The notes under the pieces are model-generated. The model saw only the letters and a program-made list of their open reading frames with translations. It was not told the DNA's origin and ran no database searches. The position numbers and the translations under genes are program-made. Shown here piece by piece: positions 12,729 through 64,000 of a stretch of 64,000 nucleotides of DNA; position 1 is the first letter of the stretch, and each line of letters starts with the position of its first letter. Origin of the DNA: a virus; IMG/VR virus record IMGVR_UViG_3300026290_000001; one strand, given 5' to 3'.

Positions 12729-12764
12729 TATTAAAATTTAAATATAAGGAGGTAATATTATTAA

Positions 12765-13859: not shown

Positions 13860-13878
13860 TTTAATAAGAAAAATACAA

Positions 13879-13940: not shown

Positions 13941-13972
13941 ATTAAAACAAAAATAAATATGGAGGTTAAAAT

Positions 13973-15394
13973 ATAATTAAATTAAATAAGTTTGCATTAG
14001 TACAATTAACTCCAAAAGATATGCGAAGCCAAGATAGTATAAATTTAGGATTAGAAATTATATCTGAAATAGTTAAAAAACAAGGTTGGCAATTAGATAC
14101 ATATAAATTCGGAGATAAAATTCAAGATGTTAATTCATATGATATTATAGGGTTTAGTTTATTCTATTTTACACAAATGTTAAATTTAGTTCCATTCCTA
14201 AAGAGTAATAATATTAAACCATTAAGTAGTAAAAGAAACAATCAACCACTATTATTAGCTGGCGGTCAAGGTATTCAAAATCCTAAACCAATTAGTAAAT
14301 TTATTGATGTATTTTGTATGGGTGAGGGTGAGGGGGTTTTGGAATATATCTTAGAAAATTATAAAAATAAAAATATTTTATCAAACCATAAGTCTTTGTA
14401 TATACCAAATATAAATGATAATTTTATATTCAACTCAATAAAAGATGTTGATTCTAAACCTATAATTTATGGTAAAAATAGCATGATAGAATTAACGAGG
14501 GGATGTAAAAATAGATGTAAGTTTTGTCAGTATGGATGGACAAATGGTAAATATCGAGAAAAAAACATCGAACTAGTAAAACAACAAATATTAGAGGTTA
14601 AAGATAAAGGCATTAAAAATATTAACTTGTTAAGTTGTAATTTGGGTGGTTATTCTAAGATAAATGAAGTTCTTGATTTTTGTATAGAAGAAAATATTAG
14701 ATTAATGAATACCGATATGAGAATTGACGAATATAGTGAAGAAATAGCTATAAAATTAGACCTACTAAAAGTGAGAACTCTAAAAGTTGGAGTAGAAAGC
14801 TTTTCTGATCAAACACGAATTGGTATTAATAAGAATATTTCAAAAATACAATTAGATACTTTTATTGACAGAGCTTTGAAGCATAATATATCAAATTTAC
14901 ATTTTTATTTAATATACGGACTTCCAAACGAAGAAAACTATAATGAATGGTTTAATTATATGGAATACATAAAAAATAGAATAAAATCTGTTGATAGAAA
15001 TATAAGAATTGAATTTAGTATTACTAATTTTGAACCAGCAATATATACACCCTTTGAAAAAAGTCCTTTAATTAATTTCCAAGACAAGCATAAATTTATG
15101 AGAGAATATTTAATAAAACAAGAAGAATTGGGTTATATAAAACAACCCGCACAAACAAAAGATTATAAAAATAGTCATGGAAGATTAGGCAGAAAAGAAC
15201 GAAGTTATAATATTGGAATGTGGTTACTACATGGGGACGAAACTGTAGGGGATGTGTTATATGAATTAAACATTAAAGGAATAGGTAGGAGTATAAATGA
15301 AAAGATTTATAATCAAATTTATAAAATATGCCAATCAAAAACTGATGTTTATCAAATAAGAAACATTCAAGATTTAAATGAAAATATATGGTGA
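13973..15394 (+). CDS. B12-binding-domain radical SAM protein; probable ATA start
   Basis: CX3CX2C radical SAM motif (GCKNRCKFCQ); upstream GEGEG-containing B12-binding-like segment; frame opens at 13970; ATA 13973 is 7 nt after GGAGG; track ATG 14021 has no RBS. Confidence 0.7.
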   Translation: MIKLNKFALVQLTPKDMRSQDSINLGLEIISEIVKKQGWQLDTYKFGDKIQDVNSYDIIGFSLFYFTQMLNLVPFLKSNNIKPLSSKRNNQPLLLAGGQGIQNPKPISKFIDVFCMGEGEGVLEYILENYKNKNILSNHKSLYIPNINDNFIFNSIKDVDSKPIIYGKNSMIELTRGCKNRCKFCQYGWTNGKYREKNIELVKQQILEVKDKGIKNINLLSCNLGGYSKINEVLDFCIEENIRLMNTDMRIDEYSEEIAIKLDLLKVRTLKVGVESFSDQTRIGINKNISKIQLDTFIDRALKHNISNLHFYLIYGLPNEENYNEWFNYMEYIKNRIKSVDRNIRIEFSITNFEPAIYTPFEKSPLINFQDKHKFMREYLIKQEELGYIKQPAQTKDYKNSHGRLGRKERSYNIGMWLLHGDETVGDVLYELNIKGIGRSINEKIYNQIYKICQSKTDVYQIRNIQDLNENIW

Positions 15395-15402
15395 TGTCCA
15401 TG

Positions 15403-15460
15403 CCTATAAATTGGGATTCTCAACACTCAAAAACATGATAAAACTAGTTTTTGGTCATGA
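15403..15460 (+). promoter_or_regulatory. copy of the repeated intergenic module
   Basis: CCTATAAATTGGGATTC, AAAAACATGATAAAAC, TTTTGGTCATGA. Confidence 0.35.
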
Positions 15461-15470
15461 AATTAAATGC

Positions 15471-15499
15471 TTGACAAATATTAATTAAAATAGTAATAT
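15471..15499 (+). promoter_or_regulatory. sigma-70/sigmaA-type promoter upstream of the ligase gene
   Basis: TTGACA (15471-15476), 17-nt spacer, TAATAT (15494-15499); RBS GGGAGGAAGG; ATG 15526. Confidence 0.5.
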
Positions 15500-15525
15500 A
15501 AAGATACTGCGAAGGGAGGAAGGTT

Positions 15526-17397
15526 ATGAGTGAAATAGAAAATCTCAAACAACAATTAGATTACCATGATGATTTGTATTACAATCAAGACGATCCTGAA
15601 TTATCTGATGTGGAATATGATGCTTTAAAACAAGAATATCTTAATTCAGTTAATCAACAAGAATACAACTATATACCTGGGCAAGCACAATTTAAAAAAT
15701 TCACACACACATTCCCTATTAAATCATTGGGGAAAATAAATACTATTGAACAAGCAAGAAAAGAAATTGAAAGGTTATATCCAGTAGTTATTGAACCTAA
15801 ATATGATGGATTAACCTTAGTGTTATATGGTGAAGGGAAAGTAGTAACTAGAGGTAGTGGTCAAATCGGAGAAGATGTTACTGCAAATGCTTCTAGATTT
15901 ATGCGTACTTATAATCCATATGGTTTACCTATTCGTGGCGAAGCAATTATGCCTATATCAGTGTTCCATGAAATTAACAAACAAAGGGATGTAGAAGGTA
16001 AGGAATTATTTAAAAATCCAAGAAATGCAATAGCAGGTATTCTTAGAAATAAAGATAATAGTAATATCCCTAAAGGGTTAAGATTTATTGCTTATGAAAT
16101 CGTAGGATCAGCAGAATCCCATATTCAACAATTATTAGAACTTAAAAAATACTATGATATACCTGAAGCAGATACTATTTGGAATTATAGTGAAATTGAT
16201 GATGCAGTAAAATTCATAGAAAACTTTGATCGTTCTAAATTAGATTATGAAATTGATGGATTAGTTATTAAATCTAATAAGACAAATGCATTAGATATTT
16301 TTGGTGAAACTGAACATCATCCGAACCATAGTGTTGCCTACAAGTTTCCTTCTCAGGGAGAATGGACTGTATTAAAATCTATAACTTGGCAAACTGGTCG
16401 CACGGGCAGAATTACCCCTGTGGCAGAATTGGAACCAGTAGATATTATGGGAAGTACAATCGAACGTGCTACATTGCATAATATAGGGTATATTAGTGGT
16501 TTAGATTTACAGCTATATGATAAGGTGTTTTTAGTGAAAAGTAATGATATTATTCCCGCTGTGATTAAATGTGAGCATACTAAAAATAGTAAACCTATTG
16601 AAATTATAAACAAGTGTCCTTCATGTGGAAGTGAATTAAAAATTATCAATGATCAATTATTCTGTATTAATGATGATTGTTTGGCAAAATTATTATATAG
16701 AACTTCTCATATGGTTAGTCGAGATGCCCTTAATATAGATGGTCTTAGTGAGCAAACCATTTTAAAAATGATTGAAGCAGGATATATTAATAAACCTTGG
16801 GATATATTTGATGTTACTGAAACAGAAATATTAAAATTAGATGGTTTTGCAAAGAAATCTGCCAAAAAAATATATGAAAATATTCAAAATGCAAGAAATT
16901 GTGATTTTGATAGAGCAATTTACGCTTGTGGAATTGAACTGATAGGCAGAAAGGTTAGTAAAGATATTGCAAAAGAATTTGAGACTATTGATAATTTGTT
17001 ATATTGTTTAAGACGTGATGATGCTAGAAGTATATTAGGTATGATTGATGGTATTGGTAATACCACTATAGATAGTTTATTGAATAACGTTAATATTTTA
17101 GAAAATATGGTGGATTATTTAAGTATTAGTAGTGTTGAAAAGAAAGAAACAACTTTTAAATCTCTTGAAAATATTACATTTGTAGTTACCGGAAATGTAG
17201 AAACATTTAAAAACCGTAAAGAGTTAGAAGAATTGATCACTTCTCTTGGTGGTAAGTTAAGTGGATCAGTTTCAAGTAAAACTAATTATTTAATCAACAA
17301 CGATATTACCTCCAATTCTGGTAAGAATAAAAAGGCAAACGAATTAGGGGTAGAAATTATTAGTGAAATACGATTTAATGAAATGATAGGTAGGTAA
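15526..17397 (+). CDS. ligA: NAD-dependent DNA ligase (LigA type)
   Basis: Adenylation motif KYDG (EPKYDGLTL); Cys4 zinc finger (CPSCGSEL…C…C); C-terminal BRCT-like region; 623 aa. Confidence 0.85.
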   Translation: MSEIENLKQQLDYHDDLYYNQDDPELSDVEYDALKQEYLNSVNQQEYNYIPGQAQFKKFTHTFPIKSLGKINTIEQARKEIERLYPVVIEPKYDGLTLVLYGEGKVVTRGSGQIGEDVTANASRFMRTYNPYGLPIRGEAIMPISVFHEINKQRDVEGKELFKNPRNAIAGILRNKDNSNIPKGLRFIAYEIVGSAESHIQQLLELKKYYDIPEADTIWNYSEIDDAVKFIENFDRSKLDYEIDGLVIKSNKTNALDIFGETEHHPNHSVAYKFPSQGEWTVLKSITWQTGRTGRITPVAELEPVDIMGSTIERATLHNIGYISGLDLQLYDKVFLVKSNDIIPAVIKCEHTKNSKPIEIINKCPSCGSELKIINDQLFCINDDCLAKLLYRTSHMVSRDALNIDGLSEQTILKMIEAGYINKPWDIFDVTETEILKLDGFAKKSAKKIYENIQNARNCDFDRAIYACGIELIGRKVSKDIAKEFETIDNLLYCLRRDDARSILGMIDGIGNTTIDSLLNNVNILENMVDYLSISSVEKKETTFKSLENITFVVTGNVETFKNRKELEELITSLGGKLSGSVSSKTNYLINNDITSNSGKNKKANELGVEIISEIRFNEMIGR

Positions 17398-17400
17398 AAT

Positions 17401-17640
17401 ATGAACGATAAAATCTATATTATACCTAGAGAAGATAAACCAATAAAATTCATTATTGAAGAATTACCATGTCCTATCTGTTCACAAATTGGATATGATT
17501 TTAGATGTGAACATGCCAAAAGTAGTTTTAAAGATTTAATATATACAATATCTTGTACTAATTTTAATCATTGTGAAAATGCAGAGAATATATCATTGAA
17601 ATTCAATGAGTTAATACAAGATGAGTTGTTAACCACTTGA
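17401..17640 (+). CDS. hypothetical Cys-rich protein
   Basis: ATG immediately after the ligase stop; CPICSQ…CEH…C. Confidence 0.45.
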   Translation: MNDKIYIIPREDKPIKFIIEELPCPICSQIGYDFRCEHAKSSFKDLIYTISCTNFNHCENAENISLKFNELIQDELLTT

Positions 17641-17950
17641 CAGATTAGTAAAATAAATATATAATAAAATTACAACAAAATATCAAAAATATCAATTTTA
17701 CAAATCCCAATATATAGCCATTCTTGAAGGTGAAAATCAACACCAAATCTGCGTTTTGTCACAACTTTTATGAATGCTAATATACAGGGCTTGAGAATTG
17801 CTATTTTAAGCGAAAATACGGTAAAATCAATGGTTTTAAGTAATTACTAAAATTAGCTTTACATAAAGTCCAATATATAGGCGTTTATAATTCTAAAAAT
17901 CGTGACAAAAGTGTCATTTTGTTTAGAAATTATAGAAAGGGGAATTAAAT

Positions 17951-18136
17951 ATGGATAAAAATTTTTTATTGCTTTGTTCATATGAGAATATGGAAGGAAT
18001 GCTAGAAAGAGATTTTGAATGGTATCAAACAGAAGAAAACATGAGAGAAAGCATTGAAGATAAAAAAGAATTTATAAAAGATTTTACGGTCAATAAAGCA
18101 ATAGAAATATTACAAGTTAGAAATATAGAAATATAA
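17951..18136 (+). CDS. hypothetical protein
   Basis: RBS AAAGGGGAA then ATG. Confidence 0.4.
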   Translation: MDKNFLLLCSYENMEGMLERDFEWYQTEENMRESIEDKKEFIKDFTVNKAIEILQVRNIEI

Positions 18137-18192
18137 TTTAAATAATAAACCTTAGTAATAAAAACATTAAAAGGAGATGAATTATACATAAT

Positions 18193-18951
18193 TTGATTGA
18201 ATTGAATAAAATTTATAATGAAGATTGTATAGGTGGAAGGGGTATGTGTTTAATCCCAAATGAATCAATCGATATGATTTTATGTGATCTTCCGTATGGA
18301 ACTACGATGGCGAAATGGGATAAGATTATCAACCAAGAAGAATTGTGGACGCAGTATAGAAGGATAATTAAACCCAGAGGGGCAATTGTACTAACTTCTA
18401 GTCAGCCATTTTCAAGTGCTTTAATATATAAAAACCTAGACATTTATAGGCATTCATGGGTTTGGGAAAAGAACAATTCTGCAGATTATGCCAATGCAAA
18501 TTGTAGACCAATGAAAATACATGAGGAAGTATTGGTATTTTCATTCGCACATGATGTTGCTCCTGCTAAAGTAAAGATGATTTATAATCCACAGGGGCTA
18601 ATACCAGTTAATAAGCCCAATCGGAGAGGTAGACATAGTGAAACAACAGGTCATTTTAGAGAGAATGAGTACATACAAAAATACACAAACTATCCTACTA
18701 CAATATTGAGGTTTGCTTCAGATAAAGATAAAATTCACTCTACACAAAAACCTGTGGCGTTGTTTGAATATCTTATAGAAACATATAGTAATGAAGGTGA
18801 TTTGGTTTTAGATAATTGTATAGGCTCAGGCACAACAGCGATTGCGTGTATAAACATCAAACGTAAATTTATAGGGTTTGAAAATGACAATACATATTTT
18901 GAGTTAGCAAACAAAAGAATAGAAGAACATAAATGTAAAATAAATATTTGA
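18193..18951 (+). CDS. DNA methyltransferase, beta-class, motif IV variant DLPY
   Basis: TTG start after AAAGGAGA; MILCDLPYGTT; TQKP; DNCIGSGTT. Confidence 0.75.
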   Translation: MIELNKIYNEDCIGGRGMCLIPNESIDMILCDLPYGTTMAKWDKIINQEELWTQYRRIIKPRGAIVLTSSQPFSSALIYKNLDIYRHSWVWEKNNSADYANANCRPMKIHEEVLVFSFAHDVAPAKVKMIYNPQGLIPVNKPNRRGRHSETTGHFRENEYIQKYTNYPTTILRFASDKDKIHSTQKPVALFEYLIETYSNEGDLVLDNCIGSGTTAIACINIKRKFIGFENDNTYFELANKRIEEHKCKINI

Positions 18952-26892: not shown

Positions 26893-27732
26893 ATGAGTTA
26901 TATAATAGATTTATACACCCAAGGCAATTCTGCGTTAAAAATTTCTAAACAAGAAAATATTCCTGTTCATCAAATATACAAAATATTGGAAAAAAACAAT
27001 ATTCCAAGAAGAAGCAATCGAATAAATAATAAAAAATATAGTTGCAATGAAGATTATTTTGAGAATATAAATACGTCAGAAAAAGCATATTGGTTAGGTT
27101 TTTTATACGCTGATGGCTTTGTTTCAAAAAATGAAAAATTTTATAATAGAGGATCGTTAGGAATATCTTTGGCAATAGAAGACAAAGAACATTTAGAAAC
27201 ATTAAATAAAGATTTAAATTCAAATTATCCTATAAACATATATAGTGTAGTTAATGGTTATAAAATTGGTATTCAATATGCAAGAATAATTATTAAAAGT
27301 GAAAAAATATTTAATGATTTGATTGATAAGGGTTTAAGTGAAAGAAAATCAGAGATTAAAAAACGTCCAAAAAAAATACCAGAAGAATTAATTAAATATT
27401 TTATACTTGGATATTTTGATGGGAATGGTTGTATTTCAATACATAGAAGAAAAAATAATGATAAGTTGGATTTTAAATTTAGAATTACAAGTACAGATGA
27501 TGTATTATATTTTATTACAGATTATTTATATAACAATAAATTAATATACAATAAAAGAAAATTAGACAAACGACACATATACGATATTGTCTCTAATTTA
27601 GAATACGGAGGAAATAGGCAAGTATATAAAATTATGCACCATCTGTATCAAAATACACCCAGATTTTTAAAAAGAAAACATGAAAGATATTTAATATTAA
27701 AAAATCAACTTATGAAAGAAGGGGAAATATGA
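26893..27732 (+). CDS. free-standing LAGLIDADG homing endonuclease
   Basis: Two LAGLIDADG-type motifs (LGFLYADGF, LGYFDGNGC) about 100 aa apart. Confidence 0.7.
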   Translation: MSYIIDLYTQGNSALKISKQENIPVHQIYKILEKNNIPRRSNRINNKKYSCNEDYFENINTSEKAYWLGFLYADGFVSKNEKFYNRGSLGISLAIEDKEHLETLNKDLNSNYPINIYSVVNGYKIGIQYARIIIKSEKIFNDLIDKGLSERKSEIKKRPKKIPEELIKYFILGYFDGNGCISIHRRKNNDKLDFKFRITSTDDVLYFITDYLYNNKLIYNKRKLDKRHIYDIVSNLEYGGNRQVYKIMHHLYQNTPRFLKRKHERYLILKNQLMKEGEI

Positions 27733-43856: not shown

Positions 43857-44216
43857 TTATCTAACTTGTTCTTTCCATGCATTTCCAAATTGCTTTTTCA
43901 ATGTTTTTAAAGACGATTCAATTAAAATTTGAATTTCACTTTCAGTTAAAGCAATACCTTTTTTATTCAACATTTCCGATAAAGCAATAAATGCTTCTCT
44001 ATATTTAGTTTGACCATCAACATCTTTAAAACTCTTTTGAACATATAAAACTGCAAGTCTAGCTAATTCTTGATTAGTCTGAATTTCATGATCAATCTTT
44101 TTAAGATTCTCTATACCTAATTTTTTCTTTAAAAGTGCAATTATAAAATATGAAAAAATCAATCCTATGATATACATAATATTTAAAAATAATTCACTAA
44201 TGATTTGATTATCCAT
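43857..44216 (-). CDS. membrane-anchored protein at the end of the lysis cassette (holin-like)
   Basis: Single N-terminal TM segment then charged domain; directly downstream of the endolysin. Confidence 0.4.
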   Translation of the reverse strand: MDNQIISELFLNIMYIIGLIFSYFIIALLKKKLGIENLKKIDHEIQTNQELARLAVLYVQKSFKDVDGQTKYREAFIALSEMLNKKGIALTESEIQILIESSLKTLKKQFGNAWKEQVR

Positions 44217-44236: not shown

Positions 44237-44953
44237 CTACTTCTTCAATTCTTTAAGTAAATATTCAACGGCATTATCAATTAAAACAGCACATTCTATT
44301 CGTGTAATACTACTATTAGGATCTAAAATCCCATCGCCTTTACCAGAAAGTATTTTCTTCTCATATAATCTATCTGCACTTTTTGCTCCCCAATGATCTT
44401 TAGGCAAGTCTTTAAAATACTTTGACATTTCTTCAATCACCTTACCTTTCAACAATTCCTTCTGAACTTCATTTTTAAATTTATCCCATGTCCAACCTAA
44501 ATGACCTGCTCTTATTAAACGTGGACAATTTTTTCCATTCCAATCCCAATGCTGTCTTAATGATTCTACATTTTTATTTTTAGATTTTAATAATTCTGCC
44601 ACAAGTAAAACTGCATTTTCTAATGTTTTTTGGTAATTCCCACTTTCACATATTTCAATTCCTATACTACGTCTATTACCAGCACCACTTCCTCCATCTC
44701 CTGCGTGCCAAGCATTTTCAAATAAAGGAATACATTCAATTGCTTGTTTTTCATCAATGGCAATATGATAACCTGTAGAAGATGTATTTGAAGGATTGGT
44801 TAAATAATCTCTTTCATTTCTTGCAGTAGATTTTGAATTCCCTGTGTTGTGAATAGTAATATATTCCCAATCCATTTTATATTTTGGACGTTTATTAGAA
44901 TTCATAGGAATGTGATCTATTACATAAGGAAAAGGTAAATTAAATTTACTCAT
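44237..44953 (-). CDS. endolysin: N-acetylmuramoyl-L-alanine amidase (Amidase_2/PGRP) with C-terminal SLH-like domain
   Basis: ITIHNTGN … HIAIDE … AWHAGDG … CPRL; C-terminal GKGDGILDPNSSITRIECAVL. Confidence 0.8.
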   Translation of the reverse strand: MSKFNLPFPYVIDHIPMNSNKRPKYKMDWEYITIHNTGNSKSTARNERDYLTNPSNTSSTGYHIAIDEKQAIECIPLFENAWHAGDGGSGAGNRRSIGIEICESGNYQKTLENAVLLVAELLKSKNKNVESLRQHWDWNGKNCPRLIRAGHLGWTWDKFKNEVQKELLKGKVIEEMSKYFKDLPKDHWGAKSADRLYEKKILSGKGDGILDPNSSITRIECAVLIDNAVEYLLKELKK

Positions 44954-46456: not shown

Positions 46457-47461
46457 TTATTGATAGAAATATTGAGTATAACTTTGTTGCTTGTGTTCAA
46501 ACGTTTGTTTTGCGTAAATGCCCGTAGTTTGAATATCATCATGACCTAAAAGTTCTTGTAATACCGACATTGGACAACCGTTATTTAGCATCAAGGTTGC
46601 GAAAGTATGTCTGAGCATATGGGGATGAGTTCTCTTGTCAAGCCCTGCACGTTTACCTATTGCTGCTATTTCTCGTTGAATACCTCGATTGCTTAATCTT
46701 CTATATTCCTGCCGTTCTGTTACAAATAATGCTTCACAGTCATCCTTACGACTTTCAAGATATTTTTTAAGGTAAATTGCAGCTCTAGCAGAATAGAATA
46801 CAATTCGCTCTTTGTTTCCTTTGCCTAATACCTTAATCGTCCGATTTGATTGTCCTATATCATCTTTATTTAGTGCCGATATTTCAGATAATCGACAACC
46901 TGTTGAATACATAATTTCAGTTAATGCTTTTTCTCGCAAAGTGAAACAACTTTCACGGAATAGTTCCAATTCTTCAATTGTTAATGCCTTTGCCATTGCT
47001 TTTCCCACTTTATAAGGTTTAATTCTAATCATCGGATTTTCTTCAATAATCTGTTCCTCACAAAGCCATTCAAAGAAACTGCGAAGTACTGAGCGAATTG
47101 TCTCAACAGTACTTTTAGCATTTACTGTTGGGTCGCTTTCCCGATCATCCAGATAGTTAATTATGTCCTGCTTGGTTATTTCATTTACTGGTTTTTCTTC
47201 GGTTCTATCGGTAAATATTTTAAGATGAAGTCGATAATTATCAATAGTTATTGGACTTAATCCTTGCCGTTTTTTATCCTTCAAAAACAGTTTTATGTTT
47301 TTCCGCAAATTATAATATTCTGGATCGCTGTTTTGTTTTATAACTCTGTATTCATCAAGAATGGAGGCTAATTGATTTTTAGCCTCCATCTTATTCATGC
47401 CTTTTTCTATGATTCCATCTACAATTTTAGCATATAGCTCATAATTGAGATTAGGGTGCAT
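46457..47461 (-). CDS. tyrosine site-specific recombinase (integrase), XerC/D-like
   Basis: Catalytic signature RLSE … HPHMLRHTFAT … LGHDDIQTTGIYA; 334 aa. Confidence 0.85.
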   Translation of the reverse strand: MHPNLNYELYAKIVDGIIEKGMNKMEAKNQLASILDEYRVIKQNSDPEYYNLRKNIKLFLKDKKRQGLSPITIDNYRLHLKIFTDRTEEKPVNEITKQDIINYLDDRESDPTVNAKSTVETIRSVLRSFFEWLCEEQIIEENPMIRIKPYKVGKAMAKALTIEELELFRESCFTLREKALTEIMYSTGCRLSEISALNKDDIGQSNRTIKVLGKGNKERIVFYSARAAIYLKKYLESRKDDCEALFVTERQEYRRLSNRGIQREIAAIGKRAGLDKRTHPHMLRHTFATLMLNNGCPMSVLQELLGHDDIQTTGIYAKQTFEHKQQSYTQYFYQ

Positions 47462-47729
47462 AGAATACCTCCTTTTATTTAGTTGTTACTGAAGGTTCAT
47501 AGTCTACTGCGAAGTAACTTCTTAATACACATTTGCGAAGTCAGAAAACTTTTTAACCAATATCAAACAACCCCGACAATTTCTCTAACTTTTTCCCTAT
47601 ACATATTAGGCACAAAATCAATTATAATTCGCCCACTTTCTACTGCATATACCCACATTCCTAATATAGCTTCACTCATATCATTCATCTCCTTTTAGAT
47701 TAAACAATTCGGTTCTTAACATATCGATT

Positions 47730-54448: not shown

Positions 54449-55741
54449 TCAGTCATGAGATGAATTGGCTCTGTTCTGTTCATATATAATCCATGATTTT
54501 CTTGCATTAATTCTTTGCATGTTAGATATTTTCGGTGTCTTCATACCTCTGGGTGCATTACTAAAATCTATTTTTTCACCATCTATACCCATAAGAATGG
54601 CATAACCCGTAGACATTCTACCTTTAATAAAATATTCATTACCTATATACCTTACTTTATCAAACTTCCTAAATCCTTCTATTTTACCTGTAGGTATCTT
54701 CTGATGACTTCTTACTCCTTTTGCCTGTTGGTAATCGCCTTTAGGGATACACTTTTTTAATACAGCTTTTTCAGTTTTAAAGCTTACATCAATTAACCCT
54801 ATATCTTCAATATTATTTAAACAGGCAATAGCTACAGCATCGTAGTAATGCTCTTTTGGTAATCCCATTAGCTGTCTATGTTCTTTGGTAATAAATCCAA
54901 AGGTTTCTTTTGCATTTGGTAGCTGTCTTAATAATTGTTGTCTTATACTATTCATCTGTGTTGTGTGTTTTAATTGTCCTTTAATTTTACCATTCTTCTT
55001 TAATTTAATTCCTCCTTTGTGCAAACTATTATGACAAGTTTTACAAAGTGTAATTAAATTTTCTGCATCATCTGAGCCACCATTTTTTCTAAAAACTATA
55101 TGATGTACCTCTAATCTGCTGTCTTTACTTTTTCCTTTGCAATACTGGCAAATATATTTATCTCTACTTAATACATAAGCTTTAGTATTAGCAAATCCAT
55201 AATTAGTTCCTTTTTGATAAAGCCATTTATTACTTAATACTGCTGGATTTTTTAAAGCATGTGGGTCAAATGTTGCTGTTTCTATTATTATATTTGTAAT
55301 GGGCATTATTGATTTTGCAAAATCAATTTCTTTTAAGTGTGAATTAATTTTACTTGTCATTGTAGGAGAAAATCTATCTTTTTTAATGCTGTTTTTCCTA
55401 TTATTAAATCTAGGTTCCCTATATCTAGTTTTCCTATTCCTTCTAGTTCTCCTATATTTAGCTCTTTTGTCCATTTTGTCAGATATATCATTTCTAATTT
55501 CTACTTCTGATATATAATACACTTCATTTTCGTCATTTGCTACTGCACTTCCTATTTTACTACTACCAGTATCAATTCCTAAAGTTAAATCTTGTGTATA
55601 GTCTGTAGCATGATATAGTAATTTAATTGTAAATGGAGTTCTTCTTATGCATTTTGCTTTACCATCTTTTAACAATAATCTTGCTATTGCTGGTTTACAA
55701 GGCATTAAAGGACTCCCATCTTCATTAATTACATAAACCAT
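54449..55741 (-). CDS. iscB: IscB, OMEGA-family RNA-guided endonuclease (PLMP domain, split RuvC, HNH)
   Basis: PLMP (EDGSPLMPCKPAIARLLLKDGKAK); RuvC-I LGIDTGSSKIGSAV; RuvC-II IIIETATFD; HNH CQYCKG…HHIVFRKNGGSDDAENLITLCKTCH; RuvC-III PKEHYYDAVAIAC; 430 aa; RBS AAAGGA. Confidence 0.8.
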   Translation of the reverse strand: MVYVINEDGSPLMPCKPAIARLLLKDGKAKCIRRTPFTIKLLYHATDYTQDLTLGIDTGSSKIGSAVANDENEVYYISEVEIRNDISDKMDKRAKYRRTRRNRKTRYREPRFNNRKNSIKKDRFSPTMTSKINSHLKEIDFAKSIMPITNIIIETATFDPHALKNPAVLSNKWLYQKGTNYGFANTKAYVLSRDKYICQYCKGKSKDSRLEVHHIVFRKNGGSDDAENLITLCKTCHNSLHKGGIKLKKNGKIKGQLKHTTQMNSIRQQLLRQLPNAKETFGFITKEHRQLMGLPKEHYYDAVAIACLNNIEDIGLIDVSFKTEKAVLKKCIPKGDYQQAKGVRSHQKIPTGKIEGFRKFDKVRYIGNEYFIKGRMSTGYAILMGIDGEKIDFSNAPRGMKTPKISNMQRINARKSWIIYEQNRANSSHD

Positions 55742-56025
55742 AAAATCAAATCCTTTCGGATAAATACTCTGCTTAAAAGCAGGTTATGCGTATCTATATA
55801 CTATTACCATATATAGAATTCGTCCTCATCTCGACAATGATAAAATAGCTTATATGTATATCACACCGAGCCTTACCCTCCAACTCTACTTAGTGATATA
55901 CGATAGAGCAATGGTCTGATGCGTCAACCAAAGGTATCATAACTATTCTATCGTAGTATAAATTTCTCTATACTAAGTCTGGTGAACTTAGACTTTAGAA
56001 GCCTCCGACTTTAGTCGGGGGTAGT
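55742..56025 (-). ncRNA. candidate omegaRNA of the IscB locus
   Basis: ~280-nt non-coding stretch directly 5' of iscB; GC well above surroundings; nested inverted repeats (GTGAACT…CCGACTTTAGTCGG…AGTTCAC at 55982-56030; GTATATCAC/GTGATATAC; CTGCTTAAAAGCAG). Confidence 0.4.
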
Positions 56026-56271
56026 TCACTCTATTTCAGGATTGATAGATAAATCATCTTTGCTTGTACTATTTACATTAGATAAATTATCTTCATTGGA
56101 CAAATCATCATTAATAATTTGACTTAATTCGTCTATTTTAGAACTTAATTTGATAATCTCTATCTGATACATATTATTTTGTAAACATAAAGTGACTACA
56201 TCTAAGGGCAAATTACTATTGTTTATTAACTCTGCCAGTTTAATATTAAAATCACTTATAATAAAAATCAC
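56026..56271 (-). CDS. hypothetical protein
   Basis: 81-aa ORF; overlapping plus-strand ORF 56192..56539 is hydrophobic low-complexity and less plausible. Confidence 0.35.
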   Translation of the reverse strand: MIFIISDFNIKLAELINNSNLPLDVVTLCLQNNMYQIEIIKLSSKIDELSQIINDDLSNEDNLSNVNSTSKDDLSINPEIE

Positions 56272-56679: not shown

Positions 56680-57606
56680 TTATTGAACTCCGTTTAATTT
56701 ATCTTCAAGTGTTATAAAATATGAACCATACACTATATCACCTGGAATCCTATCTGTAATCCCTGTTGAATTCATATTTCCTATTGCTGTTCTTGCAATA
56801 TTAAATTTCAAAGCAGTTAATGTTTTATTGCTAGATGAAACTTTTGCATTAGTTATATGATAAGATGTTCCACCTACTGTTACATATTCAGTTAAACCTT
56901 TGTAATTCCTAAACTCTACTATTTTATCAACAAACGAATTCCATCGATCCCATGTCAAAGTTGTTACTGCACCATGATTATTGAAAGCATTTCTTTCTGC
57001 TGTAGTCCAAGACCAATTAGTAGGACGAGATTTTGAAGTAGTTAAATAAGTATAACCAGACCAATCCGAAACCTCATAATTATAATTACGATCCCTTGCT
57101 CTACATCTAAATCCATATTGTGTATTTGGTTGTAAATTATTAAATGTGTCTGAAGGAGAATATGGTGAAGCAGTAATTCCATTAGTGCATTGAATATCAT
57201 AAACATTAGCATTAGATACATTAGAATAGTTTATAGTAATTGAATTAGAAGATATTGATGAACTAATATAATATGGTGTAGACAATTTTGATCTTGCTGT
57301 AGTTACATATATTGTATCTATTAAATACCAAGTTCCGTTCCATTTTCCAGATACTGAAACTTTATATTCAGTATTAGGTGTTAATTTTTGATATAAAGGA
57401 GGACTAGGCATTGAATTATAAATATCGTGCCATGTATTATAAGTAGAATTGGTTGATGTCCAATTATTCCAATATACATACTCTTGTGTACTTGACTTTA
57501 CAAGCACAATCTCAAATCCACCATAATCTTTTGCAGGATATGTTAATTCAGTAACATTGATTCGCATAGAATTGGAAGTTACATTATTGGCATATATTCT
57601 AGCCAT
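56680..57606 (-). CDS. structural protein with fibronectin type III-like repeats
   Basis: Repeated FN3-like blocks (PNTEYKVSVSG, PNTQYGFRCRARD), Trp/Tyr/Ser/Thr-rich. Confidence 0.5.
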   Translation of the reverse strand: MARIYANNVTSNSMRINVTELTYPAKDYGGFEIVLVKSSTQEYVYWNNWTSTNSTYNTWHDIYNSMPSPPLYQKLTPNTEYKVSVSGKWNGTWYLIDTIYVTTARSKLSTPYYISSSISSNSITINYSNVSNANVYDIQCTNGITASPYSPSDTFNNLQPNTQYGFRCRARDRNYNYEVSDWSGYTYLTTSKSRPTNWSWTTAERNAFNNHGAVTTLTWDRWNSFVDKIVEFRNYKGLTEYVTVGGTSYHITNAKVSSSNKTLTALKFNIARTAIGNMNSTGITDRIPGDIVYGSYFITLEDKLNGVQ

Positions 57607-57735
57607 AAAATCACCTAAATTTCTTTATAATTGAATAAATTATTTAAAAAAGAATAATAATAATTAATAAGCAAAATAGTTAAATAGTATTGTAAAAAAT
57701 TAGATAATATGATAGTATAAATATATATTATTAAA

Positions 57736-58335
57736 ATGAAAGGATGTATAATAATGAAAATTAAAAACTTATCTTATCTGTTTATTGGTTTGCTAGTTGG
57801 GTGTTTATTTCCCATTCAATCTTTATTTGCCGAACAACCTATTACATTAATTATCAATGGTAAAACAATTACTAATGCTTCACCACAAATAGTTTCAGAT
57901 AGAACGTATGTACCTTTGAGGGTAATATCCGAAGAATTAGGTGCAACAGTTGAATGGGACGGAGTAAATAGGGTAGTTAGGGTTAATAGTGGGGATGGAC
58001 AAAAAATTGAAAAGATTAATCAAAATCAAACTCAAAACAATAATGATAATAGTAATGTGGAGAGCAACCCTAGAGATAATATCAATTATATTAGTAGTGA
58101 TGATATGGAAAAATATTACGAAAGAGATACAAATAAAGGTTTTGTAAAAAATCGTTGGGTAGATGGTAAATATTTTATTGACTATGATAGAAAAATTACA
58201 CGTTTTGAAGATTATGAATATTATTATGATAGAGAAAGAGATATATTTTATTGGGCAGATTATAAGGCAATTTTAATCTTTGGAGAAACAATAAAAGATT
58301 ATCCTAAATATAAATTTAACCAAATACAGCAGTAG
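57736..58335 (+). CDS. secreted/lipoprotein with copper-amine-oxidase-N-terminal-like domain, opposite strand to the tail module (moron-like)
   Basis: Signal peptide with lipobox-like LLVGC; domain NGKTITNASPQIVSDRTYVPLRVISEELGATVEWDGVNRVVRV. Confidence 0.55.
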   Translation: MKGCIIMKIKNLSYLFIGLLVGCLFPIQSLFAEQPITLIINGKTITNASPQIVSDRTYVPLRVISEELGATVEWDGVNRVVRVNSGDGQKIEKINQNQTQNNNDNSNVESNPRDNINYISSDDMEKYYERDTNKGFVKNRWVDGKYFIDYDRKITRFEDYEYYYDRERDIFYWADYKAILIFGETIKDYPKYKFNQIQQ

Positions 58336-61189
58336 AAGAAATAGCATCTCCTTCAACTAAAACTCTTTTTGCTCCATACCAACTACTACCAACATAAACT
58401 TCATCACCTAATAAAACTTGATTAGCACTTATTTGTAAATGTGGATAAGTAGAACCACCTGCTGAAATAATAACATTATGACCAGAAGTAGTGTACATTA
58501 AAATTTCTTTATTACTACTATTTTTTCCACCTATTTGCAAAGAATTAAATGCAGTAAAATCTCCAGCAGTTATTTGATTAGCATATATTTTACCAGTAAT
58601 AACATAATCTTTTCCTAATTGTGTAGTTAAGGCAGTATTAGTAACATAGTTTGCTAAATCACCAGAATATACTAAATCTGTTGGTTTATCTATCACTTTG
58701 CCCCATGCTATATAAGCATTCGGACCCATTTGAATATTGTCACCAACAATTAACTCATTAACTTTTAGTTTATTTGCACCAACACTACCATTGGACAAAT
58801 AATTACCATTGATTTTATTTAAAGAATCCAATACATTAGTACCTGCAATTTTTAAACTCGAACAATCTATATTACCTTGAATATCTGCTGATGTTGCCAC
58901 TAAGTGACCTGAAAGGGAAACCCTGAAGGGTGCATAATTATAGTTACTACTACCTAAATATATTCCATTCGTGTCGGCTTTAAATATGGCATTACCCGAT
59001 CCTATCTGCATATGTCCTTTTAATATTAAATTACCATCAATGTCAGCATATAATTTTTTGTTCCATTGAGAACCTTCATATTTTTCAATAGTGAATCCAT
59101 CTGTTGCGTTAGATATGGAACGTACTTTATTGTCTGAACGGGTAATTGTTAGTCCATCTGTTATATCTATTTTTACACCATTATAGAGTTTATTTTCTAA
59201 GAGTACTCCTTCTGCTAATTCTGAAACTGGTAATCCACCATCCGTTATTTGTAGGGAAAGACCTGAAATTTTTACTCCCGTTTCATTGACGGTGAAGAAT
59301 TTTTTACCTTCGTTGTTTGATGCGTCTATTATGAGGTTTTGACCAATTAATAAAGTACCTAAAATTCTTTCTGCTACAATCCGATCTGGCAAAATCGCAG
59401 TATGAAATGTATTACCTCCATCTTGGGTAAGAGTAATTACACCATGCATCATACGAATAAATTTATCAGAATCGTTCGGATCTATAATACTGATGCCTCT
59501 TCTATCAGTAATTACCGTCTCATTACCACAAGCAATTACTGCTTGTTTAGTAGCATCCCATGCATTATTTATAATTTTCTGTACTTCATTATTAGCATTT
59601 TCACCCAATGACCATTTATATTTTTCCATATCAACAGTAGTAGATGTGCTCACTGCTTGATTTATTCTCTTTAAAAACAAATCATAATCACGATTAATAT
59701 TTTCAATATTACTAATTACAAGATTGACACTATTTTCTTCAAAATCAAAATCCATTTCAATAATTTTTGCCATAATGCTAATATCAAAAGTTTCATGGTC
59801 AATTCTAACCAAATCACCTAAAATCAATTTACCTTTATCTAATTGACAATCTTCATCTAAATATTGATCAATATTTATCGAATCTATCTCTATTAATATT
59901 TGTGGTGTATTTATTTTTACAAACTGTTCTTTACCCCAAGATAATAATTCTTTAGCATCAAAGATGTATTGATTTTCAACAGTTTTTACAACTATATAAT
60001 CAGTAAGTTCAAATAATTCAGATTGAGTAAAATTACTTTCCATACGCAATGTGTCACCAAGAGAAATTATATTAGATTGTACAGAATTTATTTGTGATTG
60101 TTTATTACTAATTTCAGTGTTTTTATTATTTATTTCATTTTGTTTGGCAGATTGTTGTGCTAATAAATCATAAGCACTTTGACCCTTAGATTGTGCCAAA
60201 TCTATATTGTCTTGAATTATTATTAATTCAGATTGTAGTGTAATTAATTGACTATTTAAAATTATTAGTTCTGCTTCATATGTTTCTAATTGAGATAAAT
60301 AACCTTGATATATACCATCATTATCTTGTAATTTTTTATTATAAGCCAATAAAGCATGACATAATTCATTGGACATATAATGACTACTTTGAATTACATT
60401 GCCTTGCTCATCTTCTGTATATGGATAAAGAAAATATCCAAAGTTATCTAAATAGTCAGTACCAGTTATATTGTATTCATTTATACTTAATCCCGATTTG
60501 CCATAAATTTTTAAACGAGTGCAAAAATCTGAATCATCCAAAGATTGATTTAGTGATTTCAAATAGATACCATAATTAAAATTTAAACCAGTGTAGTTTC
60601 CGATTTGGTCTAATTTATAAAAACTTATCTTTTTATTTTCAGTATCCCATTTAATAATTGCACTAAATGTTTCTGAAACTGTAAATATTGCATCTAGTAC
60701 CGTAGCAGAAGTAATTTCTAACATGCGAAATTTAGTGTCGAACTCTGAATTCACGTACCCCAAAGACCATGTAGTTTCCTTTAACAAATCGGTCATTATT
60801 TGTGATAATGTTTTGGATTCAACTTTATATCCTCTAATTAAATTATCTTTTAATTTAAAGGGGAGAGAAAAACATTCCACTTGAAACGAATCTATATCTT
60901 CACCCATATTTTGAATTGGTTTTTGTATAATAAACCATTCAATTTTATTATTATATTCAAATTTTATTAGGTATTTATAACGAATCATATTAAGATGTTT
61001 GTTATAAACTAATTCGTTCTCTATTTCAATATATAAAGGAAGATCAAACGATAATTCTGAAATATTACCAAGTTTACAGTTATATTGTATATTAAATGCC
61101 TGATTAGATAAATCTGCAATAATATTTCTATCAGGTTTTGTAAGATATAGTTTTGGTTTTTGTAGTAAGTCTATTATAAATATCACCAC
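58316..61189 (-). CDS. large tail protein (tail-associated lysin/baseplate hub-like) with coiled-coil and C-terminal fibre region
   Basis: 957 aa; central coiled-coil; Gly-rich C-terminal region; position between distal tail gene and fibre genes. Confidence 0.5.
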   Translation of the reverse strand: MVIFIIDLLQKPKLYLTKPDRNIIADLSNQAFNIQYNCKLGNISELSFDLPLYIEIENELVYNKHLNMIRYKYLIKFEYNNKIEWFIIQKPIQNMGEDIDSFQVECFSLPFKLKDNLIRGYKVESKTLSQIMTDLLKETTWSLGYVNSEFDTKFRMLEITSATVLDAIFTVSETFSAIIKWDTENKKISFYKLDQIGNYTGLNFNYGIYLKSLNQSLDDSDFCTRLKIYGKSGLSINEYNITGTDYLDNFGYFLYPYTEDEQGNVIQSSHYMSNELCHALLAYNKKLQDNDGIYQGYLSQLETYEAELIILNSQLITLQSELIIIQDNIDLAQSKGQSAYDLLAQQSAKQNEINNKNTEISNKQSQINSVQSNIISLGDTLRMESNFTQSELFELTDYIVVKTVENQYIFDAKELLSWGKEQFVKINTPQILIEIDSINIDQYLDEDCQLDKGKLILGDLVRIDHETFDISIMAKIIEMDFDFEENSVNLVISNIENINRDYDLFLKRINQAVSTSTTVDMEKYKWSLGENANNEVQKIINNAWDATKQAVIACGNETVITDRRGISIIDPNDSDKFIRMMHGVITLTQDGGNTFHTAILPDRIVAERILGTLLIGQNLIIDASNNEGKKFFTVNETGVKISGLSLQITDGGLPVSELAEGVLLENKLYNGVKIDITDGLTITRSDNKVRSISNATDGFTIEKYEGSQWNKKLYADIDGNLILKGHMQIGSGNAIFKADTNGIYLGSSNYNYAPFRVSLSGHLVATSADIQGNIDCSSLKIAGTNVLDSLNKINGNYLSNGSVGANKLKVNELIVGDNIQMGPNAYIAWGKVIDKPTDLVYSGDLANYVTNTALTTQLGKDYVITGKIYANQITAGDFTAFNSLQIGGKNSSNKEILMYTTSGHNVIISAGGSTYPHLQISANQVLLGDEVYVGSSWYGAKRVLVEGDAISSTAVFG

Positions 61190-61208: not shown

Positions 61209-61982
61209 CTAATAAAATCTGAATTCATATTTCATGTCCAAAAAACACTTGCCATCAACCTTTAGTCTATTTTTACCATAAGGCAAACTCATATAATAAT
61301 TATTTATAAGTTTGTCATATCTATAAATAGGTGGAGGTGTGCTTTCTAACGAACTTTCTATATTTCTTCTCTTACAATCGATTTGTACAATTTCATTATC
61401 TTCTAATTCTGAAAATCCAAATTCTTTACCGTTAGATAAATTTAAAATAGATACTTTACCTTTTTCTAGTTTTTTAATTGTTATTATAGGTAAAACATCC
61501 ACATCTCCTAAATTATTAAATACAAAATGATTAGTACTTTCTTTGCTAAAATCATAAGATTCTAAATAGATATGCGAATGTGCATAAGAACTCTTACATC
61601 TAAATTGACAAGTTATATAACCTTGATTTATACCATTATGAGATATTTGTGGATCAGAAATTAAAATACAATAATAAATTTTATCAGGATTTTCCGAAAA
61701 ACGCATTTTAGCATAATATGGTTTTCTTAACCATCGTTTAACCCTTTGTAAAGATTCTTCCGTCCATCCCTTTTTAAAAGCAAAAACTAAATCCAGTATT
61801 AAAGGTTTTGGTTTAACTTCTTGAAAATAAGGTTCATTTCTACCACGTATTTCAGTTTCAATTATTTCTACTTCTGCTACAAAAGGTTCTTCTGTCATTC
61901 CAGAAGAAAGATTACAATTTATAATATCGTAATCATATGAATATTCATTATCAAATTCAAAATACGCAGAATCTTTTATCAT
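61209..61982 (-). CDS. tail component (distal tail protein-like)
   Basis: 257-aa ORF between the large coiled-coil protein and the large tail protein; assignment by synteny. Confidence 0.4.
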   Translation of the reverse strand: MIKDSAYFEFDNEYSYDYDIINCNLSSGMTEEPFVAEVEIIETEIRGRNEPYFQEVKPKPLILDLVFAFKKGWTEESLQRVKRWLRKPYYAKMRFSENPDKIYYCILISDPQISHNGINQGYITCQFRCKSSYAHSHIYLESYDFSKESTNHFVFNNLGDVDVLPIITIKKLEKGKVSILNLSNGKEFGFSELEDNEIVQIDCKRRNIESSLESTPPPIYRYDKLINNYYMSLPYGKNRLKVDGKCFLDMKYEFRFY

Positions 61983-62030: not shown

Positions 62031-64000
62031 CTATTTACCAAGTTTACTCATTCCATTATTTATCCGTTTAAAGAAACCATCAACACCTTTTTCTGTGTTT
62101 TCTACTTTATCTATATGAACATTCATATTATAAGTTACGTTACCTCCACCAGCAAACTGTAATTGTGGAGTTGCATTGGCAATTAATTTTTGCATATTAG
62201 GAATTAGATATCTTTCAATATTTTTTGGTGGAATTAAAATTTCATTTGTTAGTGCTTTGATTATATGTTCATTGGCACTGGTATTGAAAAATTTATTAAA
62301 TTTATCAACAAAACCAAATGATTTATCTCCGACTATACCACCTTCATGATATATCCTAATTTGTCTTTTCTTTTCATCCCATTCTACTTGATGACCTAAT
62401 GCTTCTGCAACTTCCCTGATAGAAAGATATGTTGTTCCGTCAACATTTTTAGCTGGTTTAAATCTCTTTCCACCAATTATAATTGTCTGGTTTTGTCCAT
62501 AACCTTCCCAATCAGCAGATGCTCCTAAAAGTGATGCAAGAAGTCTAGATTGCATAATTGCTCTATTATTGACAAGTTCAAAAGAACCAGAATCCAATAC
62601 TGCCATAGGTTGTCTACCAGATGTGTTAGAACTAGGATTAGTACTTTCCAAAGAGGGAATAGACATATTCGCACTATTTGCACTTTCTAATAATGCTAAT
62701 GCCTGTTCCATTTTTGTAATTAAATTAGCACTAATACTATTACCAATAAACTCTAAATTGCCATTTACAAAAGTTTTAAATTCTGCAAAAGCTGATTTAA
62801 CTTTATCAATATTACCATTTATAATATCAGAACGAATTTGGGCAAACTTTTGTTCGTCATTAATTAAATCGTCATAGTGTTTTTCGGTTTCTCTTTTAAT
62901 TCTATCCAACCTATCTTTTTCTAAGTTAAGTTTAGTATCTTCTGCTTTTTTCTTTGCATCAATATCTTTTTTATAAGCATCTAATTGGTCTTTAAGATTT
63001 TCTTTACGTAAATCAATTGAATGGTCATGTTGATATTCATTAATTTCATCCTCTTGTTCTGCCAATTGTTTTATTAATTCTGCTTTTTTTGCTTTTGCTT
63101 CAAAAGAATCATCTAATGATAAAACGTCAATATTTTTTTGAGTTTCTAATATTGCTTTTTGTTTCTTTTCCAATTCACGATTATAATCATGCTCATTTTC
63201 TTCTCTATCTAGTGCTTTGATTCGTGCATTGATGTAATCTTCAAATTGTTTTAATTCATCATCAAGATTATCAGTTGCTTGTTTATGACGTTTTTCTTCT
63301 GCTTTCATTTGTTCATCTATGGCATCTAATGCAACTTGTTTTTGTTTTTCATAGATATTTTTATAGATAGAGATGATTTCGTCTGCTATGGATGCTAGTT
63401 GTTGTTTGATAGAGAATTGGAGATTGATATATTCTTGCTTTAGTTGTTTTAAAGTATTTATCAATTCTTGTTTTTGGTCAGCATTGTATCTATCACTTGC
63501 TAATTCCTGTTGAACTAATGCTATTTTATTTCTTAAAATATTAACACTTTCAATATTAATTTGATTTTCTCGTTCTAATAATGCAATATATTCAGCAGAC
63601 CCTTTTTCTAATAAAGACATTTCATTTCTAAGGTTTTCTTTTTCTTGAGTTAAATCAGATAGTTTAATATCTTCAATTGATAAATTAATTTTAAATTCAG
63701 CAAAACTCAAATCTCTTATTTCATCATCTATACCTTGAATTTCTTTTTTAAGACCTTCTGCACTATCTTTGAGTTTTTTAAAATCTTCAATCGCTTTTGC
63801 AATTTTTTCATTCTTTATATCAACTTCAATTGTATCTGTTGAACCAGACATTATTTTGTTAAAGTCAGATTCAGACAACCCTTTTCCAATATAAGACCGT
63901 AGATTCTGTTCTGCTTGTTTTAGACTTGAATCAAAAGTGTTATTTATATCTAAAAGCAGGTTTTGTTTTTTTTGTAATAAAAGTATCATTTGGTCATATA
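62031..64000 (-). CDS. coiled-coil structural protein, probable tape measure protein; 5' end beyond the window
   Basis: Open to the window edge; extended coiled-coil; C-terminal copper-amine-oxidase-N-like domain (TYLSIREVAEALGHQVEWDEKKRQIRI). Confidence 0.45.
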   Translation of the reverse strand, partial: YDQMILLLQKKQNLLLDINNTFDSSLKQAEQNLRSYIGKGLSESDFNKIMSGSTDTIEVDIKNEKIAKAIEDFKKLKDSAEGLKKEIQGIDDEIRDLSFAEFKINLSIEDIKLSDLTQEKENLRNEMSLLEKGSAEYIALLERENQINIESVNILRNKIALVQQELASDRYNADQKQELINTLKQLKQEYINLQFSIKQQLASIADEIISIYKNIYEKQKQVALDAIDEQMKAEEKRHKQATDNLDDELKQFEDYINARIKALDREENEHDYNRELEKKQKAILETQKNIDVLSLDDSFEAKAKKAELIKQLAEQEDEINEYQHDHSIDLRKENLKDQLDAYKKDIDAKKKAEDTKLNLEKDRLDRIKRETEKHYDDLINDEQKFAQIRSDIINGNIDKVKSAFAEFKTFVNGNLEFIGNSISANLITKMEQALALLESANSANMSIPSLESTNPSSNTSGRQPMAVLDSGSFELVNNRAIMQSRLLASLLGASADWEGYGQNQTIIIGGKRFKPAKNVDGTTYLSIREVAEALGHQVEWDEKKRQIRIYHEGGIVGDKSFGFVDKFNKFFNTSANEHIIKALTNEILIPPKNIERYLIPNMQKLIANATPQLQFAGGGNVTYNMNVHIDKVENTEKGVDGFFKRINNGMSKLGK

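Follow-up and report, generated by a model that had tools for sequence, protein, structure and literature searches.

What could a small exported protein be doing in a phage tail module, encoded against the direction of all neighbouring genes and directly beside the tail-tip gene? The question is raised by a 64,000-nucleotide (nt) stretch of the IMG/VR virus record IMGVR_UViG_3300026290_000001 (the window), in which a plus-strand gene ending at position 58335 is embedded in a block of minus-strand tail genes and runs into the gene for Tal, the tail-tip protein. A sequence-only reading of this locus had proposed a moron-like lipoprotein gene that shares a domain with a structural protein and that could act in lysogenic conversion or superinfection exclusion at the host surface. 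Judged from the sequences of the product and its homologues, the protein appears to consist of two independently exchangeable modules, a PF07833 half-domain and an orphan C-terminal 'effector' domain. The reading that we tentatively favour, with a probability of roughly 40%, is an envelope-located accessory factor in phage exclusion or in the masking of receptors or debris, a choice that follows from predicted export, a position directly after Tal in three phage lineages, modular polymorphism, purifying selection and retention in a decaying prophage, together with precedents in the literature.

The gene and its predicted two-module product

From 43.8 to 64 kb of the window, every other supported gene lies on the minus strand, in agreement with the earlier description of a single plus-strand gene in the 43–64 kb block. 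A 71-amino-acid (aa) open reading frame (ORF) with a TTG start at 47483–47698 is without support as a gene, and the GC skew switches to positive exactly over 57.7–58.3 kb. The ORF described at 57736..58335 (+) is present, while its start most likely lies six codons further downstream, giving a protein of 193 aa, since a ribosome-binding site falls within the first six codons of the longer call and since all homologues begin at the MKIKN-equivalent position, with AGGAG or AGGGAG at the same distance. The identical 193-aa product (P0001, 100%), called from the seventh codon of the longer ORF (M7, 57754), was found on 17 independent metagenome contigs, among them two of 135 and 138 kb. The ratio of nonsynonymous to synonymous substitution rates (dN/dS) was 0.03–0.25 in the N-terminal domain, where dS was informative, and 0.19–0.40 in the C-terminal domain when compared within C-terminal types, indicating that both halves belong to a real, selected coding sequence under purifying selection.

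The N-terminus, MKIK-NLSYLFIGLLVGCLFPI-QSLFA↓EQP, fits a Sec-type signal peptide, as had been proposed, and the arrangement of n-, h- and c-regions is conserved across all homologues. The motif LVGC, previously taken for a lipobox, does match the Gram-positive (G+LPP-type) regular expression, but its cysteine is not conserved in the family: the position is occupied by serine in four and by threonine in one of 16 close homologues, by serine in P0033, a distant relative with the same ('type A') C-terminal domain, and the cysteine is missing in all six homologues from a group of loci with 38% GC, where A-x-A sites (ATATFALA↓D, FAMA↓A) are found. Ten residues beyond the lipobox cysteine lies a signal peptidase I-type site around which P20, I21, Q22, S23 and A26 are nearly invariant among the close homologues, and sites with conserved −3/−1 residues recur across the homologues (SLFA↓E, FALA↓D, FAMA↓A, VIA↓S). 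Because the cysteine varies and this site is kept, the family is predicted to be exported and processed by signal peptidase I, and 'lipoprotein' was abandoned as its defining property, although the window protein itself may be lipidated.

The mature N-terminus carries the copper-amine-oxidase-N-terminal-like domain that the sequence-only reading had recognized, matching PF07833 (Cu_amine_oxidN1) with E = 1.4e-14 and 54.4 bits against a cutoff of 24.2. The profile is matched by 16 of 17 homologues, and the conserved sequence covers about half of its 108 positions. The half-size PF07833 unit of PaSOD, a secreted superoxide dismutase, is a homodimerization module (PMC10432803), and PF07833 accompanies cell-wall hydrolases or is taken as a wall-binding module (PMC4137172; bioRxiv 10.64898/2026.09.23.753664). 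Since relatives of the domain dimerize proteins and accompany wall hydrolases, the half-domain is probably, by analogy, an envelope-retention and/or dimerization module.

A very similar domain had been reported at the C-terminus of a probable tape measure protein (TMP) encoded in the same block. The identity of this partner is supported by a match to phrog_4211 (E = 9e-85) and by PhageMin_Tail in a full-length copy, and its fragment in the window matches PF07833 (E = 1.8e-9), but the domain is not C-terminal, ending about 100 aa before the end of the protein (aa 1814–1911 of 2014). Nor is the resemblance close, with 40% identity between the two proteins over 50 aa (E = 2e-7) and 25% for the second half-repeat of the TMP, compared with 50–59% for bacterial PF07833 domains. 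The latter, from Syntrophomonas, Oscillospiraceae, Tissierellaceae and others, come from a scan of GTDB genomes in which all PF07833 domains were distant, at most 59% identical. The two phage proteins thus share membership of a family and not a near-copy of one domain. The TMP of a close relative, L010, also carries PF07833, whereas two other lineages with the gene after Tal have a TMP without it in the available stretches (the C-terminal 1591 aa in the 38% GC group, L067; the available part, C-terminus included, in the L065 lineage), and a special link between the gene and the TMP domain did not hold up.

Beyond the half-domain the family falls apart. In 17 close homologues the signal peptide and half-domain (aa 1 to ~85) are ~90% identical, after which divergence is complete, and BLAST clustering of 18 proteins resolved the C-terminal parts into six unrelated clusters. 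These domains are 60–130 aa long in proteins of 145–235 aa, and no Pfam domain, toxin domain or catalytic domain was detected in any type. When the C-terminal 94 aa of the window protein were run by HMMER against 1.84 billion representative proteins, one real relative emerged, P0033, of like architecture and 44% identity. By these searches, the C-terminal types are orphan domains confined to this gene. A search of solved structures by sequence gave insignificant matches only (a KIBRA WW-like segment, E = 0.69; PaSOD, E = 0.71), and the idea that 'WVDGKYFIDYD' is WW-like or choline-binding-repeat-like was dropped, as no Pfam match to it was significant (Choline_bind_2, E = 0.04 in one member only).

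DNA identity to relatives is 92–99% over 57761–57995, collapses at ~57995 and returns within Tal at ~58510–58800, indicating that one contiguous variable tract spans the 3′ half of the gene and the 3′ end of Tal. The halves of the gene have recombined independently, as two N-domain variants, ..TITNASPQIVSDRTYVPLRVISEELG.. and ..TIQCDVPPQNVNGRVLVPARYVAENLN.., each occur in combination with C-termini of type A and of type B, and as dS between the window locus and locus L057 is 0.19 in the C-terminal part and 0.93 in the N-domain. The conserved 5′ half was also considered as a recombination 'anchor' at the DNA level and rejected, its identity not being consistently above that of the flanks. One further protein, P0006 (109 aa, 3 contigs), consists of a type-A C-terminal domain behind a different, short N-terminus, MEGFYSRVNQNQ.., without signal peptide or PF07833, and could be an artefact of gene calling or a copy that has been truncated or disrupted.

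Position after the tail-tip gene in three lineages

At eight loci of a group with 28% GC, gene and Tal converge, the gene ending 0–20 nt from, or inside, the Tal stop codon. The six loci of the 38% GC group, all from IMG/VR, have the order TMP – Dit – Tal ← → gene ← fn3-containing protein, as in the window, with an N-domain ~45% identical to that of the window protein. The third lineage is represented by L065, a 137-kb IMG/VR contig with a Tal of 24% identity, in which the homologue (8814–9449, +) has a signal peptide and PF07833 (E = 1.5e-8) and follows Tal at a distance of 77 nt on the same strand. Orientation opposite to the tail genes, a prominent element of the earlier description, therefore applies to the 28% and 38% GC groups but is not fixed in the family.

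Presence of the gene at this junction is variable. No such gene follows Tal in the cultured relatives KKP_3916 and Sundance, and in L066 a 144-aa C-terminal fragment of Tal is followed directly by a 115-aa gene at the point where L007 and L057 have the family gene. In L007 the PF07833 gene is intact next to a Tal cut to its last 13 codons (..TVTATAVFG-stop), after which comes a perfect bidirectional terminator, aaaaaagtaccctttgaaggtacttttttt. A second genomic site, for which L007 and L057 had been candidates, was rejected, as both are deleted or defective elements in which the gene lies at the post-Tal junction. The term 'moron-like' is thus apt for an extra gene at junctions that are empty in relatives, but not for its base composition, which does not differ from the surroundings.

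Three side observations concern the surroundings of the gene. The L007 locus (1727–2250, Logan SRR29552643) is a defective prophage adjoining IS66 and molybdopterin-oxidoreductase genes. On the other side of the junction, the last ~60–160 residues of Tal are highly variable and all end in ..(T/A)(A/V)AVFG-stop (window 58316–58700; L010, L012, L041, L055, L056, L058, L059, L066–L073). The fn3-side neighbour in the 38% GC group is a 636-aa protein with Peptidase_S8 (subtilase) and fn3 domains (L067, 5975–7885, −), which may be a virion-associated protease.

The proposed envelope role and its alternatives

Under the favoured reading, the protein would be exported via Sec and cut, most likely by signal peptidase I after SLFA. 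Its own promoter would drive expression while the late tail operon is silent, either in the prophage or early in infection, and the protein would be retained in the wall or at the membrane surface, where the variable domain would occupy or alter a surface component, or a tail-tip or TMP component of incoming phages. The outcome would be that superinfection is blocked and/or that progeny are not lost on cell debris. There are precedents both for an exclusion gene beside a receptor-binding gene, in T5 llp next to pb5 (PMC9586334), and for a conserved wall anchor combined with a variable C-terminal domain, in Clostridioides difficile CwpV, which blocks phage DNA entry (PMC4737114).

Expression apart from the tail operon is suggested by the upstream spacer of 147 bp and 12% GC, which contains a putative promoter (Table 1). 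Two other 5′ classes of close homologues have consensus matches of their own (TTGTAT-17-TGgTATATT and TTGGCA-17-TATAAT), as does the 38% GC group, in which TTGAAT-17-TGcAATAAT is followed by AGGGAG. Matches of this kind are not enriched in the AT-rich window, where the promoter/terminator scan found 15 sites against 18.9 expected from shuffles. A separate transcription unit is favoured by the opposite strand, the AT-rich spacer and promoter-like sites in four 5′ contexts. The late transcript must cross the gene antisense to reach the fn3-like gene, and opposed transcripts of the gene and the late operon would make their expression mutually exclusive.

Several results weigh against the proposed role. 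The scan of the window found no terminator after the gene and none between the gene and Tal, so that the transcript of the gene would continue antisense into Tal, and the L065 homologue, being co-directional with Tal, could be a late gene. The GC content of the gene (0.24–0.31, compared with 0.28 for the window) is not anomalous. Neither DNA nor protein searches, tblastn included, matched the gene in 50,697 cultured phage genomes; for the protein, Pfam returned PF07833 only, with no similarity to a known superinfection exclusion (Sie) or defence family, PADLOC and NCBIfam gave no match, and PHROG gave only a family of unknown function. The predicted structures were unusable, with predicted local distance difference test (pLDDT) scores of 39.6 for the full protein (17 homologues) and 37.3 for the mature protein (4 type-A sequences).

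The C-terminal type also fails to follow the neighbouring genes. Among 28 pairs of the close group, a small sample drawn from short contigs, its correlation with the Tal C-terminus was a Spearman coefficient of 0.19 (p = 0.34). Two loci with type E have similar Tal ends (L010/L058), but the Tal ends of the window locus and L041 are related while the ends of the gene products are unrelated, those of L055 and L059 are 59% identical with types D and B, and L056 and L059, both of type B, differ in their Tal ends, which are unrelated; the fn3-side neighbour is not tracked either. As co-variation with Tal would be expected of it, a strict receptor-masking model of the Llp kind is weakened by this result. 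A single host-range/immunity cassette made of both C-termini was likewise not supported, types A, B and D not tracking Tal.

This lack of co-variation would suit lysogenic-conversion cargo without any role in exclusion, namely a secreted, wall-associated protein that alters the host surface (adhesion, aggregation, or syntrophic partners and substrates) and uses PF07833 as a generic secretion-and-anchor 'handle'. A modular handle with at least six unrelated cargo domains, its retention in the decaying L007 prophage and the diverse partner domains of PF07833 in many bacterial secreted proteins point the same way. We nevertheless regard the cargo explanation as rather doubtful, because the strict post-Tal position in three lineages with very divergent tails is hard to explain by it, and because the cargo domains are orphans, with one real match in the 1.84 billion representatives. 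A further reading is a lytic-cycle helper that would be exported during infection, and not expressed from the prophage, and would act on the wall or S-layer, for example through debris receptor masking, release or hydrolase modulation: the L065 gene lies on the strand of Tal shortly after it, the window has no terminator between gene and Tal, PF07833 is associated with wall hydrolases, and T5 Llp is expressed during infection from a gene beside that of the receptor-binding protein (PMC9586334). Such a helper is nonetheless unlikely given that the gene is antisense to the late operon in two lineages, where read-through would interfere with expression, and that no catalytic domain is detectable. 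A structural protein of the virion is a poor fit, as all homologues have a cleavable export signal and as the gene runs against the tail operon in two lineages out of three.

Processing at Cys17 by signal peptidase II would instead give a true, lipid-anchored lipoprotein that acts in the manner of Ltp, Llp or Cor or serves as a TMP decoy through PF07833. In favour of this, MKIKNLSYLFIGLLVGC matches the lipobox expression, the L065 homologue has a similar IIGC, and Ltp of phage TP-J34 reportedly targets the TMP; PF07833 is present in the TMPs of the window phage and its close relative L010, and PF07833 half-domains can pair (PMC10432803). This version is about as improbable as the lytic helper. 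The cysteine is replaced or missing in many homologues (5 of 16 close ones, P0033 and all of the 38% GC group) beside a nearly invariant PIQSLFA↓E, and the residues after it are hydrophobic, which is untypical of mature lipoproteins. As a decoy, the domain is only 40% identical to that of the TMP, below its identity to bacterial wall proteins, and the gene occurs in the L067 and L065 lineages, in which the TMP stretches lack PF07833. A secreted polymorphic toxin or bacteriocin, in which an N-terminal trafficking part would deliver variable toxin domains against competing bacteria, recalls the conserved N-terminus with unrelated C-termini, but we consider it highly improbable: at every locus the gene reaches up to or into the stop codon of Tal and leaves no space for an immunity gene, no toxin domain was found in any type, and the C-terminal domains measure just 60–130 aa.

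A more specific version of the envelope role, which we put forward as a long shot, is a 'plug-and-play' surface-display locus fixed at the 3′ end of the tail-tip gene in SPbeta-like phages of clostridial-type anaerobes. Here, an export-plus-PF07833 handle would take up unrelated effectors by recombination and confer variant-specific exclusion as a polymorphic counterpart of CwpV, and the handle of the window lineage might in addition pair as a decoy with the half-domains of an incoming TMP. If the envelope role is correct, the genes would define a new family of phage-encoded envelope proteins in Gram-positive anaerobes, fixed beside a host-range determinant; they would offer an entry to phage–phage competition and host-surface remodelling in anaerobic digester communities, and the first phage-related role for the widespread, poorly understood PF07833 half-domain. 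If it is wrong, the gene is still a well-delimited and strongly polymorphic accessory gene, by which recombination around the tail tip of these uncultured phages could be tracked.

Source phage and comparison with known systems

Two metagenome contigs (135,317 and 138,134 bp) and an IMG/VR contig of 99.6 kb carry the same sequence as the window (27.9% GC), which is thus part of a phage genome of ~135–138 kb. Digester samples with the phage are JGI 3300009607, 3300009656 and 3300009671 and ENA ERZ27268616. Plus-strand genes fill 0–43 kb (DNA methyltransferases, radical-SAM, NAD-ligase, Pol III alpha, RecD2-like, RecJ-like and NrdD), while the supported minus-strand genes from 43.8 kb to the window end encode holin, endolysin, integrase, tail proteins, IscB, Tal, Dit and TMP (Table 1). 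From YomF/YomG-type domains and the best cultured relatives, which by Tal (31–35% identity) are Alicyclobacillus phage KKP_3916, Brevibacillus phage Sundance and 160-kb Bacillus siphophages, the phage is classified by sequence as a large SPbeta-like siphophage. Its host is probably an AT-rich, clostridial-type Gram-positive anaerobe, and the endolysin, with Amidase_2 and a single SLH domain, implies a host envelope of the SLH/secondary-cell-wall-polymer type. The integrase in the minus-strand block and the defective integrated relative L007 suggest a temperate lifestyle.

Some features of the window are independent of the gene. About 11 DNA methyltransferase genes occur in a run at 237–18951 (+), an anti-restriction or epigenetic arsenal of unusual size for a single phage. 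The run comprises nine N6_N4_Mtase genes, a D12-class gene and an MT-A70 gene, and genes for a radical-SAM protein, an NAD-dependent ligase and a PAPS_reduct-domain protein are interleaved with them. A free-standing LAGLIDADG homing-endonuclease-like ORF lies at 26893–27732 (+), between the RecJ-like and Pol III alpha genes. The IscB-type OMEGA element in the tail module (54449–56029) is a recent insertion, as its junction is empty in the relatives L010, L012 and L055.

Table 1 Features of the exported-protein gene and of the surrounding minus-strand block, in window coordinates
Feature	Position	Strand	Remark
Putative sigma-A-type promoter, TTGTAA-17-TGaTAGTAT, extended −10	57690..57718	+	Consensus match only
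Ribosome-binding site AAAGGA	57739..57744	+	9 nt before ATG 57754, within the first six codons of the 57736 start
Gene for 193-aa exported protein (predicted)	57754..58335	+	Most likely start; the 57736 start adds 6 codons
Predicted signal peptide, aa 1–27 (MKIK / NLSYLFIGLLVGCLFPI / QSLFA↓E)	57754..57834	+	Holds the LVGC lipobox-like pattern
Half-size PF07833 domain, aa 28–79 (~50 aa)	57835..57990	+	~90% conserved among close homologues
Q/N-rich low-complexity linker, aa 80–105	57991..58068	+	Recombination breakpoint near 57995
Orphan beta-rich C-terminal domain 'type A', aa 106–193 (~88 aa)	58069..58332	+	One of at least six unrelated types
Holin	43857–44216	−	Adjoins endolysin
Endolysin, Amidase_2 + single SLH domain	44237–44953	−	
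Tyrosine integrase	46457–47461	−	Mid minus-strand block, between lysis and tail genes
IscB-type RRXRR+HNH protein, 430 aa	54449–55741	−	Inside tail module
HEARO/omega RNA, Rfam RF02033	55819–56029	−	121.7 bits, E = 1.2e-24; directly upstream of RRXRR+HNH gene
fn3-like tail-associated protein	56680..57606	−	Next minus-strand operon gene, on the far side of the plus-strand gene
Tal/tail-tip protein, YOMG_N + Prophage_tail	58316..61189	−	Variable C-terminus, conserved ..AVFG end; final 20 nt shared with the plus-strand gene's 3′ end
Distal tail protein (Dit)	61209..61982	−	
Tape measure protein, C-terminal 652 aa of the 2014-aa full protein	62031..63989	−	
Two tandem PF07833 half-domains in TMP	62352..62636	−	aa 452–546 of the fragment, ~aa 1814–1911 of the full protein

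A moron-like envelope protein encoded beside a host-range gene is of a known kind. This family is previously undescribed, as are its PF07833 half-domain handle, its swappable orphan C-termini and its conserved post-Tal address. The nearest parallels in position are Llp of T5 and Cor of T1/phi80-type phages, which are also small exported proteins encoded beside a tail-tip or receptor-binding gene; in T5, llp is adjacent to and downstream of pb5, and Llp acts at the cell envelope (PMC9586334). Llp and Cor have no sequence similarity to the present protein, whose host is Gram-positive and whose lipobox cysteine is not conserved. While Llp-type proteins match the receptor recognized by their receptor-binding protein, the variable domain here does not co-vary with the Tal C-terminus. 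In architecture, the closest counterpart is CwpV, which likewise joins a conserved envelope-retention module to antigenically unrelated C-terminal domains in a clostridial-type Gram-positive host, the anti-phage activity residing in the variable C-terminal part, of which there are five types (PMC4737114). CwpV is, however, a large, host-encoded, phase-variable protein with CWB2 repeats and repeat-type C-termini, in contrast to the phage-encoded protein here, which measures 145–235 aa and combines a PF07833 half-domain with orphan C-termini that are not repetitive.

The lambdoid morons (lom, bor, HK97 gp15) resemble the gene in being extra genes of the late block that have a promoter-like site, vary in presence or absence and encode envelope proteins, but the gene is not followed by a terminator in the window and does not stand out in base composition, and its position is conserved in three lineages and not sporadic. 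Ltp of Streptococcus thermophilus phage TP-J34, a surface lipoprotein, reportedly excludes phages by acting on their TMP. It parallels the proposed envelope factor in being prophage-encoded and surface-exposed in a Gram-positive host, and its target, the TMP, is the protein that here shares the domain family. Differences are that Ltp, a true lipoprotein with helix-turn-helix-like repeat domains, belongs to the lysogeny module and has no homology to the window protein, and that a comparable TMP link fails in two of the three lineages. Finally, the N-terminal domain of PaSOD from Paenibacillus (PDB 8IMD) provides a parallel for the predicted layout as a whole, since there, too, a Sec/signal peptidase I signal peptide and a half-size PF07833 unit precede a different C-terminal domain; the unit consists of beta strands, a helix and two strands and makes a homodimer (PMC10432803). 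Its direct similarity to the window protein is weak (E = 0.7), and its C-terminal partner is an enzyme, whereas the partner here is an orphan domain.

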